Numbered from the stretch's first letter, positions 5,080-56,724 are shown. The stretch: DNA of 64,000 nucleotides from Bacteroidota bacterium (GCA_016192035.1 JACPUW010000032.1:1450-65449), one strand, 5' to 3'. A program made the numbers and translations. The notes: generated by a model not told the origin, from the letters alone.

Positions 5080-5167
5080 AAAGGTGAGGTGGTTACCACT
5101 GAAAAGGGAGGCAAATCTACAAGTGCGTTAGGGGCCGCCGTCCACGCCCGTGCATGGTGTGCCTTTT

Positions 5168-8286: not shown

Positions 8287-8318
8287 GGGGGATTAATTTT
8301 GCAAATTAAACCACCCAA

Positions 8319-16312: not shown

Positions 16313-17596
16313 TTACTTGATATACAGCTTTTTGGTGCTAATCTCGCCACCTGCCCTCAGGGTTACCAAGTACAAACCCGGTTGAAAAGCACTTACATCA
16401 AGTACCATCTCATCGCCTGAAGTTATTTGCCGCTTGTGGTACACGGTTTTTCCAGTGATGTTTACTACCTGCAAGTCCAGTTCGCCCCCATTGGTCCAGG
16501 CCAAGCCTTTCACTACCAATTTGTCATGGGCGGGGTTGGGGTACAATGCTACTTGGGCCAATGATTCAGCGGGTTTGATGCCTATACCTACCTCCTTTAC
16601 CTTGCGTATCAAGTGATTGTCAAAATCGGCTACATATAGGCTTTTCTCGGCATCCACATACATCATCTGGTACACCATTTCAAACATGGCAAATGTGTCG
16701 CGCTTGTTGGTCTTATACCCACAATCATTTGCAAAGGTGCTTCCGGCCATTACTTGGAATTTATCGGTGCCTACCTCATAGCGGCGCAGAGAGCACCCGT
16801 CTGAGAGCACCCATTGGTTGCCTACTTTTTCTATATCGGTAACATTGAATAGGTTGCCCATATTGAATGACCAATCGTAATCAGGAAAAAGGCTCACCGT
16901 GCTCACTTTTCCACCCGAAATTTTGCGCACTGCCCCGGCATCGGCCACATAAATGTCATTGCCATCGATATACAGGCCCGTAGGCGATAGAAACTTGGCT
17001 TTGGAGAGGGCGTCACCATCATCCGTACCTGTTTTGCCTACTTGTCCGGCTATGATGCTAACGGTACCGGCCGCGTCAATTTTCTTAACCACATAGTTCT
17101 GTCTGTCTGCTACATATAGGTTTCCCACCGCATCCACTTCCACATCGGATGGATCGTTAAAACCGGTAAAGTCAGCCGCCATGCTTGAGGTAATAGAAGT
17201 AAGGTTTGAAATGTTTATCAACCGCACCACATTGTTTCCGGCATCACATACTACCATGATTTCGTTTCCGCCGCGTTCGGTAATGAGAATGCCTTTGGGC
17301 GATGAAAAACGTATGGCCACCCCCTGCCCGTCGGTATAACCAGGGGTGTTTACGGCCCCAACAGCCATTTTAAAGGAAGATCCATTGTGATATACCAAGT
17401 TATGCCCACCTGTGTTGCAAATCCAGAGGTTGCCCCGGCTGTCAAAGGCCATACCGTAGGGCTGGTTGATATTATTAGATGGCTTTCCAACCGCTCCTAA
17501 ATGATCGGTAACCTCATAGTTCTGAGCCCGTACCGGCTGGATCGTTGTCGCTAGCAAAATGCAGGCAGCGTACATGATAGTAATAGCTGATCTCAT
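16313..17596 (-). CDS. NHL-repeat beta-propeller protein with T9SS type-A C-terminal sorting domain
   Basis: The C-terminal ~80 aa (LYPNPAHDKLVV…LDVSAFQPGLYLVTLRAGGEISTKKLYIK) match the Por_Secre_tail / type-A CTD. NHL-like repeats precede it. The start is reassigned to the internal ATG at 17596 (MRSAITIMYAACILLATTIQPVRAQ, a signal peptide). This removes the ORF-track overlap with purC. Confidence 0.7.
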   Translation of the reverse strand: MRSAITIMYAACILLATTIQPVRAQNYEVTDHLGAVGKPSNNINQPYGMAFDSRGNLWICNTGGHNLVYHNGSSFKMAVGAVNTPGYTDGQGVAIRFSSPKGILITERGGNEIMVVCDAGNNVVRLINISNLTSITSSMAADFTGFNDPSDVEVDAVGNLYVADRQNYVVKKIDAAGTVSIIAGQVGKTGTDDGDALSKAKFLSPTGLYIDGNDIYVADAGAVRKISGGKVSTVSLFPDYDWSFNMGNLFNVTDIEKVGNQWVLSDGCSLRRYEVGTDKFQVMAGSTFANDCGYKTNKRDTFAMFEMVYQMMYVDAEKSLYVADFDNHLIRKVKEVGIGIKPAESLAQVALYPNPAHDKLVVKGLAWTNGGELDLQVVNITGKTVYHKRQITSGDEMVLDVSAFQPGLYLVTLRAGGEISTKKLYIK

Positions 17597-17606
17597 AGAA
17601 ATTGAA

Positions 17607-18590
17607 TTAGCTGCCAAAAATAAACTTATAGTGCCAATCAGGCAACTGCTGTAGGAAAGCGAGAATGGAATGTTCCATAAGTTGGGCCACCTCTCCCCGC
17701 TCAGAACCCTGAAACGGTTTGCCCAAGAGCCGTTCATAAAGTTCAAAATACCTGGTTTGAATAAGTTCCACCCTTTCATTGTCCATTTGCGGCATAGACT
17801 GTCCATCCAGGCCTTGAAATCCTTGCTGTATAAGCCATTCCCGCACAAATTCTTTGGAAAGGTGGGTCAGTGGAAGCCCTTTTGAGATGTTTTCTGCATA
17901 CCCATCAAGGTAAAAATACCTGGATGAGTCAGGTGTGTGGACCTCATCTATGAGCATAACCTTATCGCGGTAAAGGCCAAACTCATACTTGGTATCGGCG
18001 AGTATGAGTCCGCGCTGGTGGGCCATGCGGGTACCCATCTCAAAAAGTTGCCGGGTATATTGCTCCATTTCCATATACACCTCATGGGGTACCAAGCCGG
18101 TATCCAGTATTTCTTCACGGCTTATGTCCATGTCATGGCCTTCTGGCGCTTTGGTGGCAGGTGTTATGATGGGCACAGGAAAAGCCATGTTTTCCCTAAG
18201 GCCATCGGGCAGCGCTACCCCACAAAGGCTTCTTGCACCTCCCTCATAGATACGCCAGGCATGGCCCACACAGTATCCCCTGATAACCATTTCAATACGG
18301 ATAGGCTCTGCCTTAATCCCTACCGAAACCGCAGGATGCGGGCAGCCCAGTAGCCAGTTGGGCACCACAGGGCGGGTATCTTCAAGAAAATGAGCCGCTA
18401 TCTGGTTGAGCACTTCGCCCTTGTAGGGTATGGGTTTGGGCAGTATATGGTCAAAGGCCGAAATGCGGTCGGTGGCTATCATCACCAGCAAATCGCCTTT
18501 TAGTTCATACACTTCACGCACCTTGCCGGTGTATTTGCCTATTTGTCCCGGAAAATGAAAATCCGTCTGTGTAATGGCTATTTCACTCAT
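17607..18590 (-). CDS. purC: Phosphoribosylaminoimidazole-succinocarboxamide synthase (SAICAR synthetase)
   Basis: The 327-aa ORF has the long-form PurC N-terminus (…GKVREVYELKGDLLVMIATDRISAFD…). Confidence 0.9.
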   Translation of the reverse strand: MSEIAITQTDFHFPGQIGKYTGKVREVYELKGDLLVMIATDRISAFDHILPKPIPYKGEVLNQIAAHFLEDTRPVVPNWLLGCPHPAVSVGIKAEPIRIEMVIRGYCVGHAWRIYEGGARSLCGVALPDGLRENMAFPVPIITPATKAPEGHDMDISREEILDTGLVPHEVYMEMEQYTRQLFEMGTRMAHQRGLILADTKYEFGLYRDKVMLIDEVHTPDSSRYFYLDGYAENISKGLPLTHLSKEFVREWLIQQGFQGLDGQSMPQMDNERVELIQTRYFELYERLLGKPFQGSERGEVAQLMEHSILAFLQQLPDWHYKFIFGS

Positions 18591-19549: not shown

Positions 19550-19660
19550 TCAATTTGAGAATTACAAAAATAAAGCGGGGTACTATGGCCCGCATTGGCT
19601 GTCCAAAAGCAAAATCCACGTGTTAATTCAAAATAACTTTGTGGTTCCTTTTACGCCTGC

Positions 19661-20789: not shown

Positions 20790-21623
20790 TTGCAGGCCAT
20801 GACCAGGGTTTTCCATATTTGTACTTGTCTTTTCGCTTTTGTGCAATGCGTTGTTGGCCAGCCATCTATTCTGGGTATAGGCCCCCAATCACGGGCCATG
20901 GGCGGTGTGGCGAGCACCTTGTCAAATGCCTGGTCGGCGGCCAATAACCAAGCATGCCTGGCCATGTTAGAAACGGCCCAATTAGGTGTGAGCGCCGTGC
21001 GACACTACAACTTGGGAGAACTGACCCAGGGCCACATTTCAGGTGCATTGCCCATTAAAAAATTTGGCAATCTGGGATTTAGTTTCAGTCACCTGGCCAT
21101 GACAGATGTAATGTCCGACGATAGGTTTGGCCTTTCGCTGGGCAGAAAATTTGGCCCCAATTTTTCAGCTGGCATTCAGCTTCAATTACTTTGGTTCAAC
21201 CTTCCTGCCTACGGCAACCGGGTTGCGCTATCACCGGGCATGGGGTTTTTATACTTACCCAATCCATTACTCTCCATAGGTGTGTATGCGCGCAACATCT
21301 TTACCCTTTTTGGCAAGCAGGATAATACCGGTTTGTTGCCACCAACCGCCGTGATGGGCATCAGCTATGTGCTCAGCGAGAAGCTGACAGCCTATGCCGA
21401 TGCAGGATTTTCAGTGGCCCAGGGGGCTAACATGATGATAGGGGCAAGCTATAAGCCAAACAAAAGGCTAAGACTTAGGGCTGGGGTATCTACGGCCACT
21501 TTTACCTATTCTTTGGGCCTTGACATTCGCTTCGGGTCCATTAACGTACTAGTAGGCATATCACACCACCAACGGCTGGGGGCCAGCCCCGAACTAGGCA
21601 TGAACTATGGCACCGCTCAATAG
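20790..21623 (+). CDS. Short FadL/PorV-like outer-membrane protein (family uncertain; PorP/SprF-like not excluded)
   Basis: The 277-aa ORF has a signal peptide. The mature N-terminus GIGPQSRAMGGVASTLSNAWSAANNQACLAML resembles the FadL/OmpP1/PorV N-terminal motif. Confidence 0.45.
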   Translation: MQAMTRVFHICTCLFAFVQCVVGQPSILGIGPQSRAMGGVASTLSNAWSAANNQACLAMLETAQLGVSAVRHYNLGELTQGHISGALPIKKFGNLGFSFSHLAMTDVMSDDRFGLSLGRKFGPNFSAGIQLQLLWFNLPAYGNRVALSPGMGFLYLPNPLLSIGVYARNIFTLFGKQDNTGLLPPTAVMGISYVLSEKLTAYADAGFSVAQGANMMIGASYKPNKRLRLRAGVSTATFTYSLGLDIRFGSINVLVGISHHQRLGASPELGMNYGTAQ

Positions 21624-23661
21624 AATCTGGTTTGCCATAGCCATTATTTGGCTTCCGTCGGCAGCCTTGTCACAATCCGAGTCGGAGTTGGTGCAACAGG
21701 TAATGGAGTATATACTTGAAAACGAAGAAACTGAGTTAGACTATACCGACCTCCAACTTGACCTGTTGGGCTATCTACAGAAACCCTTGGATATAAATAA
21801 GACCAATCACCACGAATTGGGGCTTTTGGGATTTTTAACCGAACCGGAAATAGCAGCCATTCTTGCCCACCGCCAGCTATATGGCCAATTTATTTACACC
21901 TATGAACTGCAAAGCGTAGATGGCCTGGGCCTTGACCGGGCCAAATTGCTCTCCAATTTTGTGCAGTGTGGCGAGGGCGCACAAAAGGCATCACTTAGCG
22001 AAATGGTACACGAGGGCAAAGGCGATTTGCTAGTGAGATACAAGACCATAGTGCAGCAACAAGCGGGATATATCAGCAACATATCGGGCGAAAAAACCTA
22101 TGAGGGCAGCCCCTTTCAACTCATGTGTAGGGCAGGATACCGCTACAACAACAGGCTCAGCCTGGGCCTAACCGCCGAAAAAGATATGGGCGAGGCATTT
22201 TTAAGTGGAAACCAAGGACAGGGCTTTGATTTCTACTCAGGCCATATACACTATGCACACAGCGGCTTGTTCCGTTCGCTATGCTTGGGCGATTACCAGG
22301 TTCAGTTTGGCCAAGGAGTGGCACTATGGAGTGGCCTTTCATTTGGCAAGAGTGCCGAACCCCTACTGGTAGCCCGGCGTCCAAGAAAACTATTGCCTTA
22401 CCGGTCAATTAACGAGAACCAATTTCTAAGAGGCGCCGCTGCCACATTCGGGCTTGGCCCTTGGGAACTCACCGCCTTTGTCAGTAAGAAAAAACTGGAT
22501 GGGGCAGTGGGTTATGATAGCCTTGGCCAAGCCCTTTCGCATAGCACCTTATCACTGGATGGATTTCACCGAACCGCTTCGGAATTAGCAAAAAAAGACG
22601 CGATTGGCGAACAAATACTGGGATCGTGCCTGGAATGGAACAGAAAAGGTTACCGCGTAGGAGCCGTATATGCCCTTACCTCCTACACACCTGGCATGCA
22701 AAAACCCAACAGTCCGTACCAGTTACACGATTTATACGGCAAGGGGTACGCTACCTCCAGTGTGTACCATGCAGGTTCACTTGGAAAGGTGTACTTATTT
22801 GGCGAACTGGCTATCAATAACCTTGACCTAAACACCCTAAGCGGCATACAAGGTTTGATAGCCCCGCTTACCAATACCATGGAAATAGCCTTACTCCATA
22901 GGCACTATAGGCCTGGGTACCATACGGCCTACTATGGCGCATTTAGGGAGCAGAGCAAAGTGGAAAACGAAGCCGGGACCTATGTGGGCATTCATTATGC
23001 GCCACATACCCATTGGCTGTTCAAGGCCTACATTGACCGGTTTCGCTTTCCATGGTTGCGGTACCAGGCCGACATGCCCAGCTATGGGCATGAATACCTT
23101 GTGGAGGTGCAGTATAAACCCAGCCGAAATTTTGTGATGATAGGCCGGATAAGGAGCCAACTCAAGGAAGCGAACCTACCCGGTGATGCTGGTCATTTGT
23201 CGCCACTGGTGGGGGAGTCAACTACCCACTACAGGCTCCAAGCCAGGTTCAACACCATAGCAGGCCTAACCGCCACTTGTAGGGGTGAATATGCCGCTTA
23301 TACAAGGGCCGGGGGCACGCGCTATAGCGGCGCCCTGGTATTTCAGGATTTTGCATTTAAGCCCTTGGATAAAAAGTACCACCTATGCATGAGGTATGCC
23401 GTGTTTCATGTACAAGATTATGGTGCAAGGATTTACGCCTATGAAAACGACGTGCTGTATGCCTACTCCGTGCCCGCCTATACCGGGCGCGGTCAACGCA
23501 TGTACATACTCCTGAAATACAAACCCCTACACGGAATGGAGTGCTGGCTTCGGTACGCGGTGACCCAGTATAGCGACCGCAGCACCATAGGCACCGGAAA
23601 TGAAACCATAGCGGGCAATACGCGAGGTGAACTCAAGGTGCAGGCCAAGTTCCGGTTTTAA
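21607..23661 (+). CDS. Large outer-membrane protein with N-terminal helix-hairpin-helix (ComEA-like) segment
   Basis: The 684-aa ORF has a signal peptide and an HhH-like segment (ELGLLGFLTEPEIAAILAHRQLYGQF). The remainder is rich in Gly/Tyr/aromatics and ends in a terminal …KFRF, the beta-barrel OMP signal. It overlaps the upstream gene by 17 nt, so the two are translationally coupled. Confidence 0.5.
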   Translation: MAPLNRIWFAIAIIWLPSAALSQSESELVQQVMEYILENEETELDYTDLQLDLLGYLQKPLDINKTNHHELGLLGFLTEPEIAAILAHRQLYGQFIYTYELQSVDGLGLDRAKLLSNFVQCGEGAQKASLSEMVHEGKGDLLVRYKTIVQQQAGYISNISGEKTYEGSPFQLMCRAGYRYNNRLSLGLTAEKDMGEAFLSGNQGQGFDFYSGHIHYAHSGLFRSLCLGDYQVQFGQGVALWSGLSFGKSAEPLLVARRPRKLLPYRSINENQFLRGAAATFGLGPWELTAFVSKKKLDGAVGYDSLGQALSHSTLSLDGFHRTASELAKKDAIGEQILGSCLEWNRKGYRVGAVYALTSYTPGMQKPNSPYQLHDLYGKGYATSSVYHAGSLGKVYLFGELAINNLDLNTLSGIQGLIAPLTNTMEIALLHRHYRPGYHTAYYGAFREQSKVENEAGTYVGIHYAPHTHWLFKAYIDRFRFPWLRYQADMPSYGHEYLVEVQYKPSRNFVMIGRIRSQLKEANLPGDAGHLSPLVGESTTHYRLQARFNTIAGLTATCRGEYAAYTRAGGTRYSGALVFQDFAFKPLDKKYHLCMRYAVFHVQDYGARIYAYENDVLYAYSVPAYTGRGQRMYILLKYKPLHGMECWLRYAVTQYSDRSTIGTGNETIAGNTRGELKVQAKFRF

Positions 23662-24477: not shown

Positions 24478-25119
24478 TTGGCAGGGGCATCTTCTTCCAC
24501 TTATGCGCCACCATGGCTACAACTTGAGTTTGGCGAGCGGCTAGCCTGGAGTAAGGGCCATGTGATTTCCTTGGTACCAGACGTATTTTTTGATGGTGCA
24601 TTGGCAAAAGATTATTTGAAACAAACCGGAGCCCCTAGGCCCAAACATACCCGGTTTTCACATCTCGAAGCCCTGGGGTGCTATATAGTCTATGAAGAAA
24701 AAGCCATGACACAGGGACACTCCTTTGGCCATCTCATTGACCACTTGGCCTGTACGGTGCTTCCTTTCAACCCAAGTTTTCTCCACTTTCACTTGGATGT
24801 GGACTGCCTGTTTTTGGCCACTTTTTCAAATGGCAAATTGTTCTTGGCCAACAGTTTTCGTTTTAACACCAAAGAAGATATCCTGTATTACTTGGTTGCG
24901 GTGGCAGAGCAATCTGGCATTAAACTGTCAGAACATAGGGTAAGCTATAGTGGATTCTTACGGCCTACCTCCGCGCTAAAGCGCATGCTCATGGAGTATA
25001 TTCCTGATGTAGTGCCAATAGATTTGAGCATACACCACATTACATTTCCACCCCCCATCACACCTGACCTACAGCACATGTACGCCGATATGTTTATTTT
25101 GCCGCTATGCGGATTATAA
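24478..25119 (+). CDS. DUF3822-like hypothetical protein (start uncertain, non-ATG)
   Basis: The ORF-track start is TTG. The frame is open from 24310 with no in-frame ATG. The segment …FNTKEDILYYLVAVAEQSGI… resembles DUF3822 proteins, which commonly precede rsmD in Bacteroidota. It overlaps rsmD by 13 nt. Confidence 0.4.
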   Translation: MAGASSSTYAPPWLQLEFGERLAWSKGHVISLVPDVFFDGALAKDYLKQTGAPRPKHTRFSHLEALGCYIVYEEKAMTQGHSFGHLIDHLACTVLPFNPSFLHFHLDVDCLFLATFSNGKLFLANSFRFNTKEDILYYLVAVAEQSGIKLSEHRVSYSGFLRPTSALKRMLMEYIPDVVPIDLSIHHITFPPPITPDLQHMYADMFILPLCGL

Positions 25120-25649
25120 GTGGGCTACACAAGGGCTATCCCATCAAAGCACCCAAAGGACTTCCCACGCGCCCTACCACCGATAGGAGCAAGGAGGGAT
25201 TATTCAATATTCTGTGCAATTGGTACGACTTTGAAAATTGCGATGTGCTTGATTTATATTGCGGTACGGGCAATATCACCTATGAGTTTGCTTCGCGCGG
25301 GGCAAAATCGGTGGTTTCAATAGATAGGCACAAGCCCTGTGTGGACTTTGTAAAATCTCAGAGCGCTCAACTACAAATGAATCAGGTCCAGGTTGTTCAA
25401 TCAGATGCACTTGATTTTCTCAGGGCTACCCCATTGAAATTTGATATAGTATTTGCCGACCCACCCTTTGCTACCAAAGACTACGAAGCCCTACATGGGT
25501 ACATAGTTTCTAAAAACATGGTGCATGACAAGGGCTGTTTTATTATGGAACATCATTCGGTGCATAATTTTAGCCATTTGGCGCATTTTTCCCAAGCCAG
25601 GCACTATGGTCAAAACGTGATCAGCATTTACGAGATCGACGGACAATAA
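25107..25649 (+). CDS. rsmD: 16S rRNA (guanine966-N2)-methyltransferase
   Basis: The 180-aa ORF has MRIISG…LDLYCGTG (SAM-binding) and the catalytic DPPF motif. Confidence 0.85.
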   Translation: MRIISGLHKGYPIKAPKGLPTRPTTDRSKEGLFNILCNWYDFENCDVLDLYCGTGNITYEFASRGAKSVVSIDRHKPCVDFVKSQSAQLQMNQVQVVQSDALDFLRATPLKFDIVFADPPFATKDYEALHGYIVSKNMVHDKGCFIMEHHSVHNFSHLAHFSQARHYGQNVISIYEIDGQ

Positions 25650-25650
25650 A

Positions 25651-25680
25651 AAAGCCCCTCTTTTGGAGGGGCTTTTTTTA
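25651..25680. terminator. Bidirectional rho-independent terminator
   Basis: An A-run (25649-25653), stem GCCCCTC (25654-25660), loop TTTTG, stem GAGGGGC (25666-25672), then a T-run (25673-25679). It lies between the rsmD stop (+) and the stop of the 1969-aa gene (-). Confidence 0.7.
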
Positions 25681-25696
25681 TGTAAACCTAGGGCGA

Positions 25697-28600
25697 TTAT
25701 CTCACCAAGGTAATGGTTCCGTTTGCCGGAATCATTTCTGTTTCACCCTTAAACCTTGACTTAAACACAAAGAAATACGTACCTGGAGCGGCATTTCCTC
25801 CTTCGGTCCTGTTGGTGCCATCCCAGAATTTGCACACCGTGGTCTGGGTTTCTTCCTTGAAATAGCACTCCAGTTCATCGTCTTGGTCAGCGCGCATCAT
25901 AATGGCGCCCCAGCGGTTGTAGATGGTAAGTTCCCACTCAGGCACCACTTGCAACTGCATTTCCCACCAGTCGTTGACACCGTCGCCATTGGGGGTTATC
26001 ACGTTGTAGAACTGGAGTATGGGTTCTACAATTAACCGAACAACGGCCCTATCTGTACAAGCCCTGGCATCATCTGGATCTACGTAATCAGATACCAAAA
26101 GCTCCACCATGTATTCACCTTCAGTGAAATCGACATATACAAATCGGCTACTGTCAGAATAGGTTTCCTCATGTATCACTGTTAGGGTATCGGGCAATTT
26201 AAATACCCTCCAACGGCTATACAGTGCATTCAGTGATCGGTTAAGGAAGACGTAGTTGCCCATGGCCTCGTTGGAACGTTCGTCAACTTCTATTTCCGCT
26301 TTCACTTCCTTCACGTTAATGGTCACTGCATCGGTCAATGGGCAGATAGGGAAATCACCCAAACCAATAGCCGTGATGCTATACTTACCGGGCTCGGCAT
26401 AGACCTGTCCTATCTCCTCTGCTACCGCTTTGGCATACACCGAATTCTCCAATCCCATATTCCAAACTACCGAATTATACCCTGTGTAGGTGGAATCTGC
26501 CACCACAGAGAAGATGATTTCTTCGCCAGGGCAGATCACATAGTCACTGGCCTTAATGGTAAATGGATCATAGTCGCGTACTGTTACGGTTATCGTATCT
26601 TCCGTGGGGTCATCAGGGTTCGGATAAACGTCAAGACATTGTTTTTCAACACCTGTAATAGGATCATTAACCTTGGCAGAGACACCCACCGTTATGTTAT
26701 ATTTCCCTGGCTTATCAAAGTAAAGCCCCACTTTCCTTCGCTTCTTGAAATCTGAAATTGCTTGTGCCAACACAGGATCGGTAGTCCAATAGCTCTGAGT
26801 CCTTTCTTCAAAACTGCTACTATCTATGACATAGGCAGAATCATTGACACAAATCACGTCTTGGGGCAAGAAAAACTTAGCCTGAGGCCCTATAATTTTA
26901 ATATAGAACTTCTTTGTTATTTCATCTTCACAACCTTGCATAGTCTTTACTTTCAATCTCACAGTGTAGCCACTGTCATGGGCGTCTAGGTAAGTGTGGA
27001 TGGGGTTTTGGAGGATTGATGTGTCCCTTTCATCACCAAAATCCCATGACCAATAAACTACCGAATCCATCTTACCCTTGGTAACAGATCTACCGCTCGG
27101 CACATCTTCTTTATTTTCAATAATTTCAGATGTATCCTTAAACTCGATAGATGAAGGGGTACACACCAATATCGTATTGCAGGTATCACATACACCAAAG
27201 AATGCACGCACTCCGAGCACACGAACGGCGTTTTGTTTGGTATTTGGTGTCCAGCAGCCCATGCTATCGCGCGCCCAAAGGGTCACATCATAAACTCCCA
27301 CTCCAAACTTTTCACCATACTTTTTGGAAGGTCCATAAGTCCATTGGGTAGAACGCCATGCTGTATTCATATCCCAGTTGTATTTGCCATAACCTGGGAC
27401 ACCATTCTGAATTGAATCGGCGGGGTTAATCCACACTTCTATATTGGCCGAATCCATAACCCGCTGATAGTCCTCCATACGAATACGTAATCCATTGACA
27501 TCAAGCGAATCAGTACCATCGGCTTTGGTAAGGTAACGCTGGGCATCAAAGTCCCATGCTATCATTTCCTTGTACAGAGGCCCTGTATATCCCGCTATGT
27601 TTTTGTACCAAAAATATCGGGCAGCCGAACTATCGGGATTGTAGAAATAGCCATTTGAGTCAATGCATGTGGTGTTTTCCCACCATTCATTTAATTCGCA
27701 AAACACCTGGCCACCTGGATGCCAGTAATAGACTGAGTCGTTGAAGGTAACTGTTTGGAAATTGCACAGCACACTGTCGTCATACCTAAATGCCTGATGC
27801 TGACCCAGCCATATTTCTTTCGATGAGCCTCCAAAACAGAAGTCCGCTCCATGTTGGGCTTTGGTTGTGGAGGTAATGATGTATTTGCCCGGTTCCTTCA
27901 ATAGGTAGTTAACCGTGTCGCGCAGGTTAACCAATTTGGTATCGCCCACTTGCAGTGCCATATATCCATCAGGCATCATCAGGAGTGAGTCGGCCAACAT
28001 ACTTTTTGCTGCAAAACCATTTTGACTTGCCGATTTAACTATGAAATACTTGAAGTTGCGAAGTGAATCACGCGAAAGACAAGCGGACTTACCCCTATTG
28101 TTTCCGTCAAGGGTATCATTCCTCCTATAATCCTTTACCGATAGGATAATTGGATAAGGCAGTTTTGTAGGTAGCAAGTGCGGTTCCCTGGCTATACAGT
28201 CTGTAAACTCTATGGCATTTACCACATCGGGACGCTTCTGGCCTTCATTGCCTGCCGGCCTGCCGTCGGTTTCTTCCACCACGCGGGTCCTTGGATTGGG
28301 CGACACTAGGAATTCCCCGTTGGCATCTATAAAATAGCGGTAATTCTCATAGAAGAAGGTATCAAAACAGTCGCCTACCTTGATAACAATACCAGGTGTT
28401 TTGCAGCCGGCCGTACCGTAGCTCCAGCGCATACCTATCAATTGTAGGATCATTTCAGGAATCCAGCCACACTCATAATAAAAAGTGTCCACCTCCTCAT
28501 AACCATACACTATTATAGGGCGGCCACCCGATCCCGCATTGGCTGAATCGACAATCACCATTTTTACCCGGCCATTGTCCTTAATGCCCCCGGTTTGCTG

Positions 28601-31600
28601 CCTTACGTTCACACTCTGTAAGAAACCAAGGTTAGAAATGGTGGCAACACCTTTTGCCCGTACGGTACCATATACACCTGGGGTAATCAAATCGCGCCAT
28701 TCCACATTGTATGTGCCGCCCTTCTTGCCACTGCCTCGATTGATGATTTCGGTTTTTACAATTTTCCCCGCTCCGTCAGTTGTACACGATATCTTGTTGC
28801 AATCGTTGTCGGTAGGGTCATCGTTCTTGCCTTGATATTGGTTATCGCGGTTAAATATCATCCAGAAAGTCTCCCTTCCACAAAGTGGTATGGTCTGGGC
28901 TATATTGATGCGCTGGAAGTAAGGGTTTGCCGCGTTGCCCACGCAAGGAGCGGCACCACGGCCCAATTCTACCCCTTTTCTAAAGTCATTGCCATTTTGG
29001 TCCTTCTGAAATTGAGGTTGGTTATAGTAGTTCACAGAATCTACGGTGGCAAAACCCTCGGGATCTGCTGGGCCGCCATCGGGCTCTTGCATCACAATGG
29101 GTTGTTGATCACTTGATTCGCAATCGTTTACAGGATCATATACCGTCAACATGGCTGTCCAGCAACCATCGGTGGCATATAGGTGCTGTGGGGCTGCAAT
29201 CTCAGAGTACAGGCACCGAAGTGGATCGCCCGAAGGATTGCTTCCCTTTACCAACATGGATGTTCTACTGGCATCATAGTAAGTGGTGCATTGATCGCCG
29301 TCGTCCCCAAAGTTCCAGAGGTAGTACATACTGTCAGAAGCCCAAGGGTAATTGATGTTGTCCCTGCACGAATCCAGGTTGTTGGCACCAATAAAAGCCG
29401 CCGACATATTGTCCATATCGTGCATACCATGGGTTGGGATGGTATTGTAATCCCTGCCAAATAGCCTATATTTCAAACTGTTATTCTTAAAGGTAACCAA
29501 GTTTGGCGCTTTACAGTCAAACTTAAACTTATCGGAATCGTGCATGGTGCGCCATTCGTCGTCGCAGTCGGGAGGCAATGTGCCTGCGTACATGGCAGGA
29601 AAATGAAGTCCCCCTTTGTGCTTAATGGGGCTTCGCACAATGCGGTATAGGTAGTTAACCCCGCTTATGGTGATTTTGTGCGCCCTTAAGTAGGGTTCGT
29701 GCACCCAGAATGTGGTATAAACCTTAGGCCCCCCGCCTATTGGGGCTATGGAGTCTGTAATTTGGAGGGAATCCACTACCGGAATAGGGTCTGAGTAATC
29801 CCAAGTAGGTCTAAATGCCTGTGAGAATTGGTTGTAACGATAGCGCCAATTCCCGTTCACCCCATTGTCAGGTGCTTCATACACAGGTATGGAATCTATA
29901 ACATATGGGTTGCGCGGTATGGTATCGCCCTTTTTAAAGTAAAAGCTATCGCACAAGAAAGAGTAGAACCCATCAATGGTAGCTATAAATGATGTTTGAT
30001 CATAAAACACGGTATCACCTGCGCGTATGAATTTGGTGATACCCGGAGTCCTTACGGCATCCTTCGTCTGGTGCTTGTTAAAAATGGGTTTGCTCACCCA
30101 GCCATCTTTTTCGGCATAGTAAAAATTGGGCCCACATGCCGTGGCATCGTCGCCCGCTGCACCGAGTGAAACGGCATAGGAATCTATGTTGGCATTGCAA
30201 TAGACAAAGTAGCTGTCCCTCTTGGTTTTTTGCCTATGGTCCACCCACACATAGTCTATGGTTTGAATGCCCGATGAGGCACGATAGCACTCGTCATATT
30301 TGATTTTTTCAAATGCAGCGCGGGTTACTTCCCGCGGATCCACACAATTGTTTGCCGGAAACTCGGGTGGAGGTGGGAGGTTTATGGCCGCCGAGGGCCC
30401 CCTGAGCTTTACGAAACAAATGGTGGTATCACGGGTGGGGCATGGGGGCTCTGTAATGGCCAAACTGATGTTATAAAAACCTGGACCACCGACAAACTGG
30501 TGCGAAGGGCTCCAGCTATCGCGGTTCACGTTTAATTGTTGTGAGGCGGGGTCTCCAAAAGTCCACGTCCATTGGGTGGCATTTGGCCTGGGTGGGTGTA
30601 TAAAGGTGATGCTATTATTGGTAAAGCATGGGGTATCTGGCAACCATACAATATCAAATTTGAAATTGATGGAGCGTATGGCGTCTTTTAATATAAAGGT
30701 CTGTTCGCACCCATCTCTGGCCACTATGGTCAACGAAGGGGATTTATATCCATCGCTACAGTATTTCCTGGTAAAACCTGTCCACCAATTGTTGTAGTCT
30801 TCATTGCCCGGGCTGCGCATATAGAAGGTTTGAACCGACTTCTTCCCAGAGGTGCCAAAATTCCAAATCCAATGATCGATCAAGGAGGTGTCAAATGGCG
30901 TCCGGTTGTTAAATTTAATTTCCGTGCAAGGACAGCCCACGGGTCCAGATACGGTGAACCTAGCTCCAATGTCATTATACACTTCGGGGTGTGCTTTTCG
31001 TACTTTCACATCATTGCATCCCTTCTCGTCGGTTACCGTATAGACAATGTCAAAGTTTCCGCCCTGTGGGTAGCTATGGCAAATGGTAGGTTTGTTAGAC
31101 CCCGCGCCATCGCCAAAGTCATAAAAGTGTTTGGTTAGTTTGTGCCCTTCCTTACCGGGTACTGCCAAGCTACTAAAACAGAATTCATTGTCCTTAAAGC
31201 ACTGCGCAGTATCGCTCGTAATCTCGTAATCGGCCACCGGGTTGGAATAAACCAATATGGGGGCTGTAAGCAAATAATCCTTCCAGGTAGTGCCTGTTTT
31301 AATCTTTAGTATCGGGTTATAAGTCCCGGCATCGAAATTTCTTCCAAAAGTCCTAACGGTGCCTGAGGGCAACCAGTCGTCGTGTCGGACTATACGCGTT
31401 GTGCCCACCCAGACTTCCACGGAATCCACCGCCGCCCCGCTTATGTCAGCCGAAAAGGTGACCAGGTGCGGTTCACAACCCTCATATGGGTTGCCAATGC
31501 CTGAAATGCTGAATGTTACGGTTTGTGCCAACAGGGAGTTGGTTGGCAGCAGGCCTACTAAGGCAATAAGCCATAGCAAGGATGCGCCTGGGAGTTTCCG

Positions 31601-31606
31601 TTTCAT
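25697..31606 (-). CDS. Giant (1969 aa) cysteine-rich cell-surface protein with T9SS type-B C-terminal sorting domain (SprB-class adhesin-like)
   Basis: It has a signal peptide MKRKLPGASLLWLIALVGLLPTNSLLAQ. The C-terminus …YNVITPNGDGVNDWWEMQL…ELTIYNRWGAIMMRAD…FWDGTNRTEGGNAAPGTYFFVFKS…GTITLVR matches the gliding-motility-associated CTD (type B). The body is very long and rich in Cys/Trp/Tyr/Asn/Gly, consistent with multiple Ig/PKD-like domains. Confidence 0.75.
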   Translation of the reverse strand: MKRKLPGASLLWLIALVGLLPTNSLLAQTVTFSISGIGNPYEGCEPHLVTFSADISGAAVDSVEVWVGTTRIVRHDDWLPSGTVRTFGRNFDAGTYNPILKIKTGTTWKDYLLTAPILVYSNPVADYEITSDTAQCFKDNEFCFSSLAVPGKEGHKLTKHFYDFGDGAGSNKPTICHSYPQGGNFDIVYTVTDEKGCNDVKVRKAHPEVYNDIGARFTVSGPVGCPCTEIKFNNRTPFDTSLIDHWIWNFGTSGKKSVQTFYMRSPGNEDYNNWWTGFTRKYCSDGYKSPSLTIVARDGCEQTFILKDAIRSINFKFDIVWLPDTPCFTNNSITFIHPPRPNATQWTWTFGDPASQQLNVNRDSWSPSHQFVGGPGFYNISLAITEPPCPTRDTTICFVKLRGPSAAINLPPPPEFPANNCVDPREVTRAAFEKIKYDECYRASSGIQTIDYVWVDHRQKTKRDSYFVYCNANIDSYAVSLGAAGDDATACGPNFYYAEKDGWVSKPIFNKHQTKDAVRTPGITKFIRAGDTVFYDQTSFIATIDGFYSFLCDSFYFKKGDTIPRNPYVIDSIPVYEAPDNGVNGNWRYRYNQFSQAFRPTWDYSDPIPVVDSLQITDSIAPIGGGPKVYTTFWVHEPYLRAHKITISGVNYLYRIVRSPIKHKGGLHFPAMYAGTLPPDCDDEWRTMHDSDKFKFDCKAPNLVTFKNNSLKYRLFGRDYNTIPTHGMHDMDNMSAAFIGANNLDSCRDNINYPWASDSMYYLWNFGDDGDQCTTYYDASRTSMLVKGSNPSGDPLRCLYSEIAAPQHLYATDGCWTAMLTVYDPVNDCESSDQQPIVMQEPDGGPADPEGFATVDSVNYYNQPQFQKDQNGNDFRKGVELGRGAAPCVGNAANPYFQRINIAQTIPLCGRETFWMIFNRDNQYQGKNDDPTDNDCNKISCTTDGAGKIVKTEIINRGSGKKGGTYNVEWRDLITPGVYGTVRAKGVATISNLGFLQSVNVRQQTGGIKDNGRVKMVIVDSANAGSGGRPIIVYGYEEVDTFYYECGWIPEMILQLIGMRWSYGTAGCKTPGIVIKVGDCFDTFFYENYRYFIDANGEFLVSPNPRTRVVEETDGRPAGNEGQKRPDVVNAIEFTDCIAREPHLLPTKLPYPIILSVKDYRRNDTLDGNNRGKSACLSRDSLRNFKYFIVKSASQNGFAAKSMLADSLLMMPDGYMALQVGDTKLVNLRDTVNYLLKEPGKYIITSTTKAQHGADFCFGGSSKEIWLGQHQAFRYDDSVLCNFQTVTFNDSVYYWHPGGQVFCELNEWWENTTCIDSNGYFYNPDSSAARYFWYKNIAGYTGPLYKEMIAWDFDAQRYLTKADGTDSLDVNGLRIRMEDYQRVMDSANIEVWINPADSIQNGVPGYGKYNWDMNTAWRSTQWTYGPSKKYGEKFGVGVYDVTLWARDSMGCWTPNTKQNAVRVLGVRAFFGVCDTCNTILVCTPSSIEFKDTSEIIENKEDVPSGRSVTKGKMDSVVYWSWDFGDERDTSILQNPIHTYLDAHDSGYTVRLKVKTMQGCEDEITKKFYIKIIGPQAKFFLPQDVICVNDSAYVIDSSSFEERTQSYWTTDPVLAQAISDFKKRRKVGLYFDKPGKYNITVGVSAKVNDPITGVEKQCLDVYPNPDDPTEDTITVTVRDYDPFTIKASDYVICPGEEIIFSVVADSTYTGYNSVVWNMGLENSVYAKAVAEEIGQVYAEPGKYSITAIGLGDFPICPLTDAVTINVKEVKAEIEVDERSNEAMGNYVFLNRSLNALYSRWRVFKLPDTLTVIHEETYSDSSRFVYVDFTEGEYMVELLVSDYVDPDDARACTDRAVVRLIVEPILQFYNVITPNGDGVNDWWEMQLQVVPEWELTIYNRWGAIMMRADQDDELECYFKEETQTTVCKFWDGTNRTEGGNAAPGTYFFVFKSRFKGETEMIPANGTITLVR

Positions 31607-31656
31607 GTGTTTGGTTTTAAGAAGTGGTCAAAAGTATGGTTAATGTTCGTTATATG

Positions 31657-32976
31657 CTATCTGTTTAGGGATACAAGTCCCTTTATGGTTTCCGTAATGC
31701 TGTTGTCGCAAGGATTGGGATACTGTATTATATAGGTATATAGTCCAGGTTCGCACAAGGTGCCTTGGTTCATCCAAGAGCCATCCCATTCGTCACCCAT
31801 TCCATGACCTGATTTATATACAAGCACCCCTGATTGGTTATAGACTTCTAGTTCCATTTGCCCCTGGCCTTCTGCTACTTGGGGGAGCTTCACCCCAAAG
31901 ACATCGTTTTTGCCATCGCCATTCGGGGTAAAAATATTGGGTATCAACGGCCTCTTATGCTCTGTGGAAGCTGCGGCATGTAATACCATTTCCGCAGTAT
32001 CCCTACAATCTCCTTGTTTCACAATAAGTTGTAACCCCTTAGGCCCTGAATTCCCAAAGCCGACTTCCACGGTCTGCCCAGCATATTGCCGTGAGTCAAT
32101 ATTCCATAGGAAATCAAGATTCTTATCGGCCACCCCATACACCCGATATTGCCCGCAATGGGTTTCCTCTATGTCAATCTTGGCTTTCGGCCTTTCGGAT
32201 ACCACTATTTGCTTCTTGAGCAAAACCCTGGAACCCTTATCCAGCATCTCCAGGACTTCTAGCTCATAGTTTCCGGGCATAGTGATGGACAATCTTTTCT
32301 TTTGGCCAATTCCCCCTTGTTTAACCACAATTTTACTCTTTACTTCAAACAATCGATAGATATACAGATGATTGGCAATGGGATTGGCAATTGTAAGTTC
32401 CACCACATCATTGGCACAAACCTTTGAAGAAGAAACACTAGCCAAAGGGGGCTTTTTACCACTTTCTAACAGTTGATCTTTGGTAGAGTCCACCATGCTG
32501 CCGGCACGAGCTACACCCTTTCCCAACATGTTCTTACCGGTATCCCCACTTTTAGCTTTGTTCCCCACTCCTTTTGAAAGGGGCTCATTATCGCCCTGAT
32601 CTTTATAAGGTTCTGCCGTATCGGAAAGCCGACCATTTTCTGGCCCATTATCCTCAATGGAATTTGATGAATTATCTAAATTTTCCCCTTGATTTACAAA
32701 TACTTGTTCATGTATCAAGGTTGTTTCTTCCTTTTCGGCCTCCTCTTGCCAACTTGCATTTACCCACAACGTGGTGATTACCAATGCAATTCCTGCAATT
32801 GATGCAATACCCCAAAGCCCTACGCCACCACCAAGGCCGGTTTGTGGACCGCCTTTGGCAGGTACTTGGGCTGATGTCGCCAAACGCCCTTGCACCCGCT
32901 CCCAATCGGCACCCACTTCGTCAGTTGTGTGCGGGGCGCTATGGTTGCTGAAATGTGCTTTAAGTTGGTCCATCAA
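31657..32976 (-). CDS. Membrane-anchored anti-sigma-like protein ending in a T9SS type-B C-terminal sorting domain
   Basis: The 439-aa ORF has no N-terminal signal peptide. It has a ~54-aa charged N-terminus, then one TM helix (GLWGIASIAGIALVITTLWV), then a ~130-aa acidic low-complexity linker and small beta-rich domains. The C-terminus …IFTPNGDGKNDVFGV…ELEVYNQSGVLVYKS…WDGSWMNQG…PGLYTYIIQY…GLVSLNR matches the type-B CTD. It starts 6 nt after the ECF sigma stop. Confidence 0.6.
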   Translation of the reverse strand: MMDQLKAHFSNHSAPHTTDEVGADWERVQGRLATSAQVPAKGGPQTGLGGGVGLWGIASIAGIALVITTLWVNASWQEEAEKEETTLIHEQVFVNQGENLDNSSNSIEDNGPENGRLSDTAEPYKDQGDNEPLSKGVGNKAKSGDTGKNMLGKGVARAGSMVDSTKDQLLESGKKPPLASVSSSKVCANDVVELTIANPIANHLYIYRLFEVKSKIVVKQGGIGQKKRLSITMPGNYELEVLEMLDKGSRVLLKKQIVVSERPKAKIDIEETHCGQYRVYGVADKNLDFLWNIDSRQYAGQTVEVGFGNSGPKGLQLIVKQGDCRDTAEMVLHAAASTEHKRPLIPNIFTPNGDGKNDVFGVKLPQVAEGQGQMELEVYNQSGVLVYKSGHGMGDEWDGSWMNQGTLCEPGLYTYIIQYPNPCDNSITETIKGLVSLNR

Positions 32977-32981
32977 TGGGG

Positions 32982-33515
32982 CTATTTATAAAAGTTCAAT
33001 TGCTCTATTTGTCTCTTTAGCAACAGCTTTGCCTTATTCAACTGTGACTTGGATGTGCCTTCGGCTATACCTAGCAATTCACCTATTTCCTTGTGGGTAT
33101 ATCCTTCAATCACATACATGTTGAACACCGTACGATACCCTTTTGGCAAGCGTTGTATCATTTGGATAATTTCTTCGTAGGCCAAATCCTTAAACACATC
33201 ATTGTCCACCGATTGATTCGACAACACAGATTCATCGTCGCTGGTAGGCATGCGCATATCGCGCCTATATTGGTCTATGGCGTTGTTGACCATAACCCTT
33301 TTCATCCACCCTACAAATGAGTAATCGGGATGGTACTGGTCTATCTTTTCAAAGATCTTCACAAAGCCATCCTGCAACATATCACGTGCTTCCTCACGAC
33401 CCTGGGCATAGCGCAGGCAAATGCCTAGCATAATGCCATAGTAGTGCTCAAATACTTTTTTTTGGACTTTTGGGTCGTGCCGCTTGCACCCCTCAGCCAT
33501 TTCCATTTCGGTCAT
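32982..33515 (-). CDS. RNA polymerase ECF-type sigma-70 factor
   Basis: The 178-aa ORF is taken from the internal ATG at 33515 (MTEMEMAEG…) of ORF 32982..33683. It has region 2 (…FEHYYGIMLGICLRYAQGREEARDMLQDGFVKIF…) and region 4 HTH (…YTHKEIGELLGIAEGTSKSQLNKAK…). Confidence 0.75.
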   Translation of the reverse strand: MTEMEMAEGCKRHDPKVQKKVFEHYYGIMLGICLRYAQGREEARDMLQDGFVKIFEKIDQYHPDYSFVGWMKRVMVNNAIDQYRRDMRMPTSDDESVLSNQSVDNDVFKDLAYEEIIQMIQRLPKGYRTVFNMYVIEGYTHKEIGELLGIAEGTSKSQLNKAKLLLKRQIEQLNFYK

Positions 33516-33688
33516 TCGGATGCGTAGCCTTGCATGGTTGTACAAGCCAAAACTACGAAACAAGCTACCCCTTAGTTGCCTTTGGTGGCCTAAACTGTCT
33601 TTTACATCTATAGTTTGGCACTCCTGGGCCTCGTAGCCCGCCTTATGATGCTTACGGTAACTTCGCCACATTAAAAAAAGCACACTGC

Positions 33689-35179
33689 ATGGGTAAAATA
33701 CTTATTGCCAATAGAGGAGAGATAGCGGTAAGGATCATACGCTCGGCGCGTGAAATGGGGTACTCCACCGTAGCGGTATATAGCGATGCAGATATAGACG
33801 CCCCACACGTACGCCTTGCCGATGAAGCATACCGACTTGGGCCAGCCCCGTCAAATCAATCGTACTTGCTGGGAGACAAGATTATTGAAATTTCTAGGCA
33901 GGCCGGGGTATGGGGCATACACCCTGGATATGGATTCTTATCAGAGAACTACGCTTTTGCACAAGCTGTTACCGATGCCGGCTTGGTTTTTATTGGCCCA
34001 AAACCGCACGCTATTCAAATAATGGGAAACAAACTGGCTGCCAAGGCTGCCGTTTCGGCCTACCAAATCCCCATGCTTGGCGGCACTGCCGGTGCGGTGG
34101 TAGATGTGGAGGAGGCCAAGGAAATAGCCGAAAAAATTGGATACCCCGTATTAATTAAGGCTGCGGCCGGTGGCGGAGGCAAGGGCATGAGGGTGGTTTA
34201 TGAATCCGCTTTGCTTGAAAATGAAATGAAAAGGGCTGTATCAGAAGCACTTTCCTCCTTTGGTGATGGATCGGTCTTTATAGAGAAATACGTAACATCA
34301 CCCAGGCATATAGAGATACAGGTGCTTTTTGACAGCCATGGCAACGGAGTATATTTATTTGAGCGTGACTGCTCTATACAACGAAGGCACCAAAAGGTAG
34401 TAGAAGAAGCCCCATCAGCCGTGCTTAGCCCATCGCTGCGCAAGGCCATGGGGGAGGCGGCCCTTGATGTAGGCCGTTCATGTGATTACCTGGGTGCAGG
34501 CACCGTAGAGTTTTTGGTTGATGACCAAGGCAAGTTTTTCTTTTTGGAAATGAACACCCGGTTACAAGTGGAGCATCCTGTCACTGAATTGATTACCGGA
34601 CTCGACCTGGTAAAAGAGCAGATAAAGGTGGCTAGGGGCGAAGCACTTTCATTTAACCAGGAAGACCTGAAAATTTATGGCCATGCCATAGAGCTCAGGT
34701 TATACGCTGAAGACCCGGCCAACAATTTTTTGCCCTATACCGGTACGCTGACGCGCTACCGCCCATCAAACGGACCCGGGGTTAGGGTGGATAGCGGTTT
34801 TGAAGAGGGCATGACCATACCGGTTCACTATGACCCCATGATTGCAAAATTGATCGTTCATGGTGCCGACCGTGCTGAGGCCATTGCCCGTATGAAAAGG
34901 GCCATACATGAATTCCAACTGGAAGGCATTGAAAACACCCTTTCTTTTGGTCACTTTGTGATGGAGCACCCAGCCTTTATAAGTGGGGACTACAACACCC
35001 ATTTTGTGCCGGCCTATTTTAGTCCAGAAAAACTCTCAGTTGTTGAAAATCAATCTGATAATAAACTAATAGCCGCTTTGTCCGCTTGGATTTATGAATC
35101 AAATAAACAAGGAAATGGAGCAACTACCCCCATTGGCCCTGCCAACAACGGCGCATGGCTTAGGAGAAGGTGGGCCTGA
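33689..35179 (+). CDS. accC: Biotin carboxylase (acetyl-CoA carboxylase biotin carboxylase subunit-like)
   Basis: The 496-aa ORF has the N-terminus MGKILIANRGEIAVRIIRSAREMG and an ATP-grasp core with the CPSP-like region (…EMNTRLQVEHPVTE…). No accB/BCCP gene is adjacent. Confidence 0.8.
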   Translation: MGKILIANRGEIAVRIIRSAREMGYSTVAVYSDADIDAPHVRLADEAYRLGPAPSNQSYLLGDKIIEISRQAGVWGIHPGYGFLSENYAFAQAVTDAGLVFIGPKPHAIQIMGNKLAAKAAVSAYQIPMLGGTAGAVVDVEEAKEIAEKIGYPVLIKAAAGGGGKGMRVVYESALLENEMKRAVSEALSSFGDGSVFIEKYVTSPRHIEIQVLFDSHGNGVYLFERDCSIQRRHQKVVEEAPSAVLSPSLRKAMGEAALDVGRSCDYLGAGTVEFLVDDQGKFFFLEMNTRLQVEHPVTELITGLDLVKEQIKVARGEALSFNQEDLKIYGHAIELRLYAEDPANNFLPYTGTLTRYRPSNGPGVRVDSGFEEGMTIPVHYDPMIAKLIVHGADRAEAIARMKRAIHEFQLEGIENTLSFGHFVMEHPAFISGDYNTHFVPAYFSPEKLSVVENQSDNKLIAALSAWIYESNKQGNGATTPIGPANNGAWLRRRWA

Positions 35180-56649: not shown

Positions 56650-56724
56650 TTCGGGATGTGGAATGAAAAAAGTTTTTGGACAAATTGAAACTTATGCTAC
56701 TTTTGCAAGCCCAAATCCAAGGAG

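Follow-up and report, generated by a model that had tools for sequence, protein, structure and literature searches.

A predicted type IX secretion cargo encoded behind an ECF sigma factor and a probable Dma-like anti-sigma protein with a sorting signal of its own

We describe here a three-gene module in a 64,000-nucleotide (nt) stretch of DNA from a Bacteroidota bacterium (GCA_016192035.1, JACPUW010000032.1:1450-65449; hereafter ‘the window’), made up of genes for an extracytoplasmic function (ECF) sigma factor, a middle protein that resembles an anti-sigma factor, and a giant protein of 1969 amino acids (aa) that ends in a C-terminal domain (CTD) of type B, a type IX secretion system (T9SS) sorting signal. 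The giant, which was the subject of an earlier reading of this DNA (the original prediction), is an uncharacterised T9SS surface protein of a known kind, from an uncultured lineage, and fairly ordinary as such. The middle protein is the more interesting lead: it, too, ends in a type-B CTD, a feature that the original prediction overlooked and that is the unusual part of the locus. On balance, we lean towards a reading in which the giant is a T9SS type-B surface cargo, set in a module with the ECF sigma factor and a Dma-like, CTD-bearing anti-sigma factor, and coupled to them by the mechanism that we propose below.

The middle protein and its likeness to Dma-type anti-sigma factors

The principal features of the module, all on the minus strand, are given here in order of transcription, with residue ranges referring to the protein listed above them.

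32982..33515, minus strand: ECF sigma factor, 177 aa from the ATG at 33515 (Sigma70_r2, Sigma70_r4_2; TIGR02937 at 91.5 bits)
31657..32973, minus strand: anti-sigma-like, putatively Dma-like middle protein, 438 aa (CHU_C and TIGR04131 matches, alignment of seven orthologues)
aa 1-35: predicted cytoplasmic motif
aa ~51-73 (nt ~32755-32823): transmembrane (TM) segment
aa ~74-180 (nt ~32434-32754): polar tether
aa ~181-343: two immunoglobulin (Ig)-like domains
aa ~344-438 (nt 31660-31944): type-B CTD
25697..31606, minus strand: open reading frame (ORF) of the giant, 1969 aa, predicted T9SS type-B cargo (translation, Pfam and NCBIfam scans, orthologue alignment)
aa 1-27: signal peptide, MKRKLPGASLLWLIALVGLLPTNSLLA, followed by QT
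aa 28-~420: N-terminal PKD/Ig-like block
aa ~420-1470: conserved region, largely without family match, with one PKD-like domain at ~745-840
aa ~1470-1864: second PKD/Ig-like block
aa 1865-1969 (nt 25700-26014): CHU_C type-B CTD

The CTD of the middle protein matches CHU_C at 58.9 bits and TIGR04131 at 33.9 bits; CHU_C is the only Pfam match in the protein, whose C-terminal half is made up of the Ig-like domains and the CTD, and the 8-stranded OMP_b-brl_2 barrel was not found in it by Pfam. Seven orthologues are 20-30% identical, yet they hold to a common architecture, in which an N-terminal motif of ~35 aa (L..F..EAPF..EEMQADW..V..IG), conserved where the remainder diverges, is followed by a Gly/Ser/Ala-rich stretch, a single hydrophobic helix at ~aa 51-85 (in the window’s own protein a 19-mer at aa 51-69, with a mean hydropathy of 2.05), a tether of 91-120 aa that is 63-79% polar and unconserved in sequence, two Ig-like domains with conserved Cys and, last, the CTD. 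Of the 35 other CHU_C proteins returned by our searches, those that are not fragments carry an ordinary signal peptide at residues 1-30. A word-indexed homologue search with the middle protein gave two full-length relatives, the others being partial (11-39% of the query, consistent with the CTD), and an AlphaFold2 model, made with two sequences, was unusable (mean predicted local distance difference test score, pLDDT, of 31.6).

In the Dma architecture, a TM helix and a long, disordered tether connect an N-terminal sigma-binding domain to an 8-stranded barrel at the C-terminus, the gene adjoining that of an ECF21 sigma factor (PMC10927553, PMC13088901). Sequestration of sigma by an N-terminus of this type has been shown experimentally (PMC10927553, PMC13088901), with Dma1 and Reo each binding their own sigma factor in this way (PMC10927553); neither of the two papers mentions the T9SS (PMC10927553, PMC13088901). 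We suggest, from the sequence comparisons that follow, that the middle protein is Dma-like in design and that its putative sigma-binding N-terminal end is probably homologous, although it is not a member of Dma as defined, with Ig/PKD domains and a T9SS signal in place of the barrel.

A scan of metagenome contigs with an alignment of the sigma factor found 505 relatives, the best 80 of which are 41-71% identical (all of them 41-51%, except for the orthologous locus L010 at 71%). The gene that follows sigma opens with a similar motif (F/Y-E..P....W..I...L) in 40 of the 41 loci analysed, most also having a TM helix at around residues 45-110; the exception is L071, where the sequence taken was part of the sigma gene itself. 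In their C-terminal parts, these sigma-adjacent proteins fall into three classes: those with a barrel, those with PKD and CHU_C domains, and a short class. The OMP_b-brl_2 barrel class comprises L019, L026 together with human-gut duplicates, and L045, along with L075 at 25.1 bits, under the 27-bit cutoff. The CHU_C class, each member having the N-terminal motif, a TM segment and CHU_C, comes from other metagenomes, as follows.

L023, 6521-7429: CHU_C at 55 bits
L082, 2740-3879: CHU_C at 55 bits, with PKD domains
L084, 4325-5443: CHU_C at 74 bits, with PKD domains
L087, 954-2285: CHU_C at 31 bits, with PKD domains
L016, 6527-7435: CHU_C at 23 bits, below the cutoff

No large cargo gene adjoins the sigma/CHU_C-anti-sigma pair in L016, L023, L084 and L087, where the two genes are found by themselves. 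That there are four or five such independent, sigma-adjacent CHU_C proteins in other metagenomes suggests that the combination is no accident of a single lineage. The short class (222-316 aa; L011-L014, L017, L022, L056, L060-L068, L072, L074, L076, L079, L083 and L088, in each case the gene after sigma) mostly has an N-terminal ‘E..PP..W..I’ motif twice before the TM helix. Many of its members share one type of C-terminal tail (...NFMDIL.L..SL....), and L011 has no Pfam match.

When the N-terminal 80 aa were compared with hhalign, the middle-protein family matched the other CHU_C class at a probability of 94.9% (E 4e-8), and this class in turn matched the barrel class at 97.3% (E 1.7e-11); the direct comparison of the middle-protein family with the barrel class gave a weak match, at 41% (E 2.7e-4), in the same register.

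The order sigma, TM-CHU_C protein, giant, all on the same strand, is found in every related locus examined, that is, in nine orthologous loci from an uncultured Bacteroidia lineage (L001, which is the window’s own contig, L002/L006, L003, L004, L005, L007, L008, L009 and L010), among which the sigma factors are 63-76% identical. The middle ORF begins 5 nt past the sigma stop codon, with the two genes overlapping in some loci, and ends 50 nt before the giant; this last gap is unstructured and holds no terminator, such that the operon-like position of the giant behind the sigma/anti-sigma-like pair, as originally predicted, is borne out. The flanks of the module vary, RsmD/DUF3822 lying downstream in some loci and DUF481 in others. 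In two loci, a second giant paralogue (~1900 aa, with CHU_C; L009 2121-7832 and L010 63-5786) lies immediately upstream of sigma, giving the order giant, sigma, anti-sigma, giant, and in L009 a GC-rich, terminator-like hairpin sits between this upstream paralogue and the sigma gene.

The giant protein, its family and its T9SS context

Translation confirms the ORF of 1969 aa at 25697-31606 on the minus strand. The type-B CTD proposed for its C-terminus is likewise found, with Pfam CHU_C (PF13585) scoring 52.7 bits against a cutoff of 27; TIGR04131 (NCBIfam) reaches 31 bits (E 2e-7), under its cutoff of 35, and spans model positions 2-48 only, the first half of the model, this match being partial and below cutoff because an insertion interrupts the CTD. 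All 14 members of the giant family match TIGR04131, the best with an E of 1.5e-12. Pfam also places PKD_4 and PKD domains close to either end of the giant, and the signal peptide, as read from the sequence, is typical of a cleavable Sec signal, with A27 and Q28 invariant among orthologues.

The original prediction described the body as rich in Cys and Trp, with many CxxC-like spacings. The enrichment is real but modest (Cys at 2.49% against a window mean of 1.03%, Trp at 2.39% against 1.49%), and the description of the spacings was wrong, there being exactly one CxxC, at residue 1473. We have accordingly rejected a CxxC-based, metal-binding reading of the Cys pattern. Nearly all of the 49 Cys are invariant across 13 orthologues that are 45-61% identical, which fits structural disulfides in a protein that would fold in the periplasm. 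The Ig/PKD-like domains are each kept between orthologues and hardly resemble one another, and there are no DNA tandem repeats in 25000-34000; the giant is thus not an SprB-like array of recent repeats.

Domain annotation, which had been put forward as a means of defining the body, found the PKD/Ig-like domains and CHU_C and left ~700 residues that match neither Pfam nor any PDB sequence: five segments of the giant, when rescanned against Pfam at relaxed thresholds, added only further weak PKD matches, and PKD domains were the sole matches of a giant-family profile to PDB sequences. Structure prediction, also suggested for this purpose, failed to define the body, the AlphaFold2 model of aa 420-1470, made with eight sequences, being unusable (mean pLDDT 32.0). 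From the architecture of the protein, and from the known nature of type-B T9SS cargo (PMC12618676, PMC9143113), we infer that the giant would be secreted and displayed, with a role in binding or adhesion; most likely as a rigid stalk, in which disulfides would stabilise divergent PKD/Ig-like domains and the ~700 lineage-specific, apparently beta-rich residues between the two PKD/Ig blocks probably serve binding or adhesion. An adhesin or polymer-binding role, as first proposed, is to this extent a reasonable inference from the sequence.

Full-length relatives of the giant (n=14, 1900-2400 aa) all come from metagenomes or metagenome-assembled genomes labelled just Bacteroidia or Bacteroidetes; one orthologue (P0003) is named by NCBI as a gliding motility-associated C-terminal domain protein, and the family is present in three GTDB species representatives. 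In an exhaustive hidden Markov model search that covered 1.84 billion cluster representatives, just four clusters had the central region (aa 420-1470) in full, while 81 proteins (E<1e-10) carry one or both of two sub-modules, at ~aa 690-930 and ~1180-1365. Among nine of these wider relatives that were scanned, eight have PKD domains, a T9SS CTD (type A or type B) or both, the ninth is a 441-aa fragment with no match, and none has an enzymatic domain.

No PorP/SprF gene adjoins the giant, in agreement with the original prediction, and the family had no match (Pfam, NCBIfam) among the ORFs scanned across the 64-kb window, nor among the Pfam-annotated called genes beside the module in five related loci. 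This orphan status had been regarded as unusual, a view that does not stand, for orphan type-B substrates have already been described: in Flavobacterium johnsoniae, an sprF-like gene adjoins nine of 12 type-B substrates, and the remaining three (Fjoh_1123, Fjoh_1720, Fjoh_4934) all make use of an orphan shuttle, Fjoh_1677 (PMC12618676). By this comparison, a giant with no neighbouring shuttle gene is a known variant and not an anomaly. The gene at 20790, offered earlier as a FadL/PorV-like candidate for the missing partner, matches the PorV/PorQ family weakly (30 bits, where the cutoff is 90) and is absent from the neighbourhood of the module in L002 and L003, so that it is not a dedicated partner of the giant; we have rejected it as a PorP/SprF partner. 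This weak PorV/PorQ barrel (20790-21623, plus strand) overlaps the start of a gene for a 684-aa protein (21607-23661, plus strand), which has no family match here, a weak HHH_3 match in orthologues, and an end (...KFRF) that resembles that of an outer-membrane protein; the pair is kept in L005, L007 and L009, and does not lie beside the module in L002 and L003.

The window’s contig carries no core T9SS genes. Indirect, candidate signs of a T9SS in the host are the barrel at 20790 and an NHL-repeat protein with a type-A CTD (Por_Secre_tail, 51 bits) at 16313-17848 on the minus strand, which is syntenic in L001, L005 and L009. With the latter encoded in the same window as the type-B proteins, the organism has both types of CTD.

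Transcription signals around the giant gene

The candidate signals that bear on expression of the giant, and the gene that faces it, are listed below.

33554..33579, minus strand: ECF-type promoter motif GCAAC-N16-CGTA, upstream of the sigma gene, sole match in the window
31629..31636, minus strand: TACTTTTG, a sigmaA-type -7 box (TAnnTTTG) and candidate internal promoter, 22 nt upstream of the giant’s ATG
5112-5119 (minus), 8294-8301 (plus), 19565-19572 (minus), 19634-19641 (plus), 56698-56705 (plus): examples of other TAnnTTTG copies
25650..25680, acting on either strand: bidirectional intrinsic terminator, hairpin of -20.2 and -20.6 kcal/mol, with a U-run on either strand
25107-25649, plus strand: convergent RsmD-like methyltransferase gene (Cons_hypoth95 at 129.9 bits)

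The motif GCAAC-N16-CGTA(A) occurs once per locus, always directly upstream of sigma, in eight of nine loci. Since it is conserved in this position and has the AAC/CGT form of ECF promoters, in which a CGT -10 box is typical (PMC9723704), we suggest that the sigma gene is probably autoregulated through it. Ahead of the giant itself, we sought a second ECF-type promoter and found none, AAC-N15-18-CGT being absent within 400 nt upstream of it in any locus.

The original prediction, which held that the giant is co-regulated with the upstream pair in a sigma-dependent manner, had itself named an internal promoter as the finding that would count against this, and a candidate is present: TA(T/C)TTTTGA is invariant, 22 nt before the giant’s ATG, in seven of seven aligned loci, and contains TAnnTTTG, the -7 box of Bacteroidota sigmaA (PMC9723704). 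TAnnTTTG is rarer in the window than expected (37 copies against ~54), and 10 of the 37 lie between genes, in the orientation of a gene that starts 15-45 nt downstream; with intergenic DNA making up 6.7% of the window, these 10 gene-proximal copies point to a -7 promoter box that is in use there. The gap before the giant being unstructured and free of terminators, read-through from the sigma promoter is to be expected as well. Taking the signals together, we consider it most likely that the giant is expressed from a housekeeping-type promoter of its own, boosted by sigma-dependent read-through. Of the predicted co-regulation, then, the operon-like order stands, while strict dependence on sigma is weakened by the internal -7 box, by the paralogue outside the sigma operon in L009 and L010, and by the lack of an ECF motif near the giant.

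At its other end, the giant gene stops 47 nt from the convergent RsmD-like gene, and the bidirectional terminator predicted to face rsmD is indeed there, as a hairpin whose folding energy is close to -20 kcal/mol whichever strand is read (z -4.3 and -4.8) and which is flanked by A- and U-runs. Searches of the window found no Rfam families. Elsewhere in the window, an ORF of 1407 aa at 57422-61645 (minus strand) has a TM segment in its N-terminal part and matches nothing in Pfam or NCBIfam (E<=1e-2/1e-3), and a hybrid two-component sensor of 1306 aa is encoded at 42523-46443 (minus strand), combining periplasmic Reg_prop/Y_Y_Y repeats with HisKA, HATPase_c and receiver domains.

Proposed mechanism, rival explanations and known systems

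Drawing on what is known of the families involved, we propose that the giant would be exported by Sec, fold with disulfides, pass the T9SS by way of its CTD and be retained on the cell surface by a PorP-like protein whose gene lies elsewhere, and that the anti-sigma factor would keep sigma at the inner membrane, with its N-terminus binding sigma in the cytoplasm. We further speculate that the tether might let the Ig-Ig-CTD module reach or pass the T9SS, or reach a PorP-like anchor at the outer membrane, such that the anti-sigma factor would, like Dma, form a bridge between the cytoplasm and the outer membrane; a change at the outer membrane (in secretion status, through surface contact or damage, or by loss of this connection) could then lead to proteolysis and release of sigma. 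The freed sigma factor would activate its own promoter, with transcription reading through into the giant gene, which would additionally have a basal, sigmaA-type promoter. One version of these events, in which the middle protein would be a true T9SS substrate that is still anchored in the inner membrane, its ~100-aa tether threading the periplasm and its Ig-Ig-CTD module being delivered to a PorP-like anchor, we regard as distinctly doubtful.

Several points weigh against our reading. Signal peptidase normally cuts T9SS cargo loose from the inner membrane, the middle protein shows no conserved site for such a cleavage, and we know of no mechanistic precedent for the secretion of a membrane-anchored protein by the T9SS, which makes this the main mechanistic difficulty. 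The TIGR04131 scores of both the giant and the middle protein are slightly under the NCBI cutoff. No anti-sigma Pfam domain (ZAS/RsrA, RskA, FecR) was found in the N-terminal 80 aa of the seven middle-protein orthologues, even at E<=10, and, the direct N-terminal match to the barrel (Dma-like) class being weak, homology to that class is transitive. The giant’s own -7 box, together with the paralogues outside the sigma operon, argues that sigma is not required for expression of the giant, and the existence elsewhere of sigma/CHU_C pairs with no giant means that the coupling may be lineage-specific. Finally, the steps rest on sequence, the AlphaFold models standing at pLDDT 32.0 (giant) and 31.6 (middle protein).

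Some of these points feed an explanation in which adjacency carries no regulatory role, the giant being expressed constitutively from its sigmaA promoter as a surface protein while the sigma/anti-sigma pair controls other genes and is simply its neighbour in a gene order that this lineage conserves; we take this to be possible, with the chances against it. The -7 box that is invariant in seven loci, the promoter-like behaviour of TAnnTTTG in the window, the lack of an ECF-type motif within 400 nt upstream of the giant, the paralogues lying upstream of sigma behind a terminator-like hairpin, and the pairs in L016, L023, L084 and L087 with no downstream giant all sit well with it; it has more trouble with three genes that stay together, in order and on one strand, across terminator-free gaps of 0-50 nt while both flanks vary, with a read-through from the ECF promoter that is physically expected, and with Dma2, which likewise belongs to a three-gene operon (PMC13088901).

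Other explanations concern the middle protein itself. Its CTD might never be secreted, and serve instead as a periplasmic bait, drawing the T9SS translocon or a PorP-like shuttle away from the giant; the protein would then not span both membranes, and would report secretion capacity or cargo load as a form of homeostatic feedback. We see this bait role as a serious alternative, albeit an unlikely one: the protein is predicted to be anchored in the inner membrane with its CTD intact, a tether of this length could extend as far as the periplasmic face of the outer membrane, and PorA-PorXY-SigP offers a precedent for a CTD protein that feeds an ECF pathway controlling T9SS genes (PMC7712824); against this, the CTDs of the giant and the middle protein are just 29% identical, such that a shared shuttle is not indicated, and the CHU_C anti-sigma class exists with no co-encoded cargo. 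Or the middle protein could be no anti-sigma factor at all, being a small PKD/Ig T9SS cargo, or an accessory of the giant, whose N-terminal signal-anchor is unusually long. The missing anti-sigma domain, the uninformative AlphaFold2 model and a JGI label that merely reads ‘gliding motility-associated-like protein’ leave room for this; we find it quite improbable, however, given a ~35-aa motif, predicted to be cytoplasmic, that is conserved amid divergence and common to the proteins that follow homologous sigma factors in dozens of loci, the barrel class among them (with Dma1 and Reo shown to bind sigma through the N-terminus; PMC10927553), and given the tight coupling of the gene to that of sigma and the signal peptide that ordinary CHU_C cargo has at residues 1-30.

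Should the module of sigma, CTD-bearing anti-sigma factor and giant be as we propose, it would point to a class of Dma-like anti-sigma factors, so far undescribed, whose terminal element is a T9SS sorting signal and not an outer-membrane barrel. How a protein comes to sit in two membranes is a question that the Dma authors call open, and the CTD-bearing variant suggests one testable route by which this may happen. The module would also provide a direct link, outside PorXY-SigP of Porphyromonas, between T9SS or surface status and ECF-dependent transcription, with the sigma factor, and through read-through its giant cargo, answering directly to T9SS function or events at the surface. Our search for literature linking anti-sigma factors with the T9SS or a type-B CTD found the PorA paper alone, which is not proof of absence.

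Set beside known systems, the giant shares with SprB/SprF the character of a very large type-B T9SS surface protein, but has no match to the PF13573 SprB repeats and no adjacent sprF, its domains being non-repetitive and individually conserved. It resembles the F. johnsoniae orphans more closely, as a large, predicted adhesin-like protein with a TIGR04131/CHU_C C-terminus and no adjoining sprF-like gene, and differs from them in a body that is unrelated to characterised proteins and in a gene that lies behind a sigma/anti-sigma pair.

The middle protein, as in Dma, is encoded directly after a Bacteroidota ECF sigma factor and has a short, presumably cytoplasmic motif, one TM segment and a long tether, with a C-terminal module that is destined for the outer membrane (by prediction, in our case) and a possible three-gene operon; the likeness of the sigma factors themselves lies in the 42-51% identity of ours to those that precede OMP_b-brl_2 proteins of Dma architecture. 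It departs from Dma in having two Ig/PKD-like domains and a type-B CTD in place of the OMP_b-brl_2 barrel, and a giant T9SS cargo, instead of outer-membrane vesicle genes, as its neighbour. PorA of Porphyromonas gingivalis is also a CTD protein that acts upstream of an ECF sigma factor, SigP, by way of PorXY (PMC7712824), and both cases thus place a CTD-bearing protein upstream of a T9SS-connected ECF sigma factor; PorA, however, is a soluble cargo with a type-A CTD that acts via a two-component system, whereas in our module the putative anti-sigma factor itself bears the CTD. Finally, the proposed module has in common with FecA-FecR-FecI and SusC-like signalling the relay of an outer-membrane event to an inner-membrane anti-sigma factor and an ECF sigma factor, but does so with neither a TonB-dependent transducer nor a FecR domain; in its place, receptor and anti-sigma factor would be a single polypeptide that makes use of a secretion signal.

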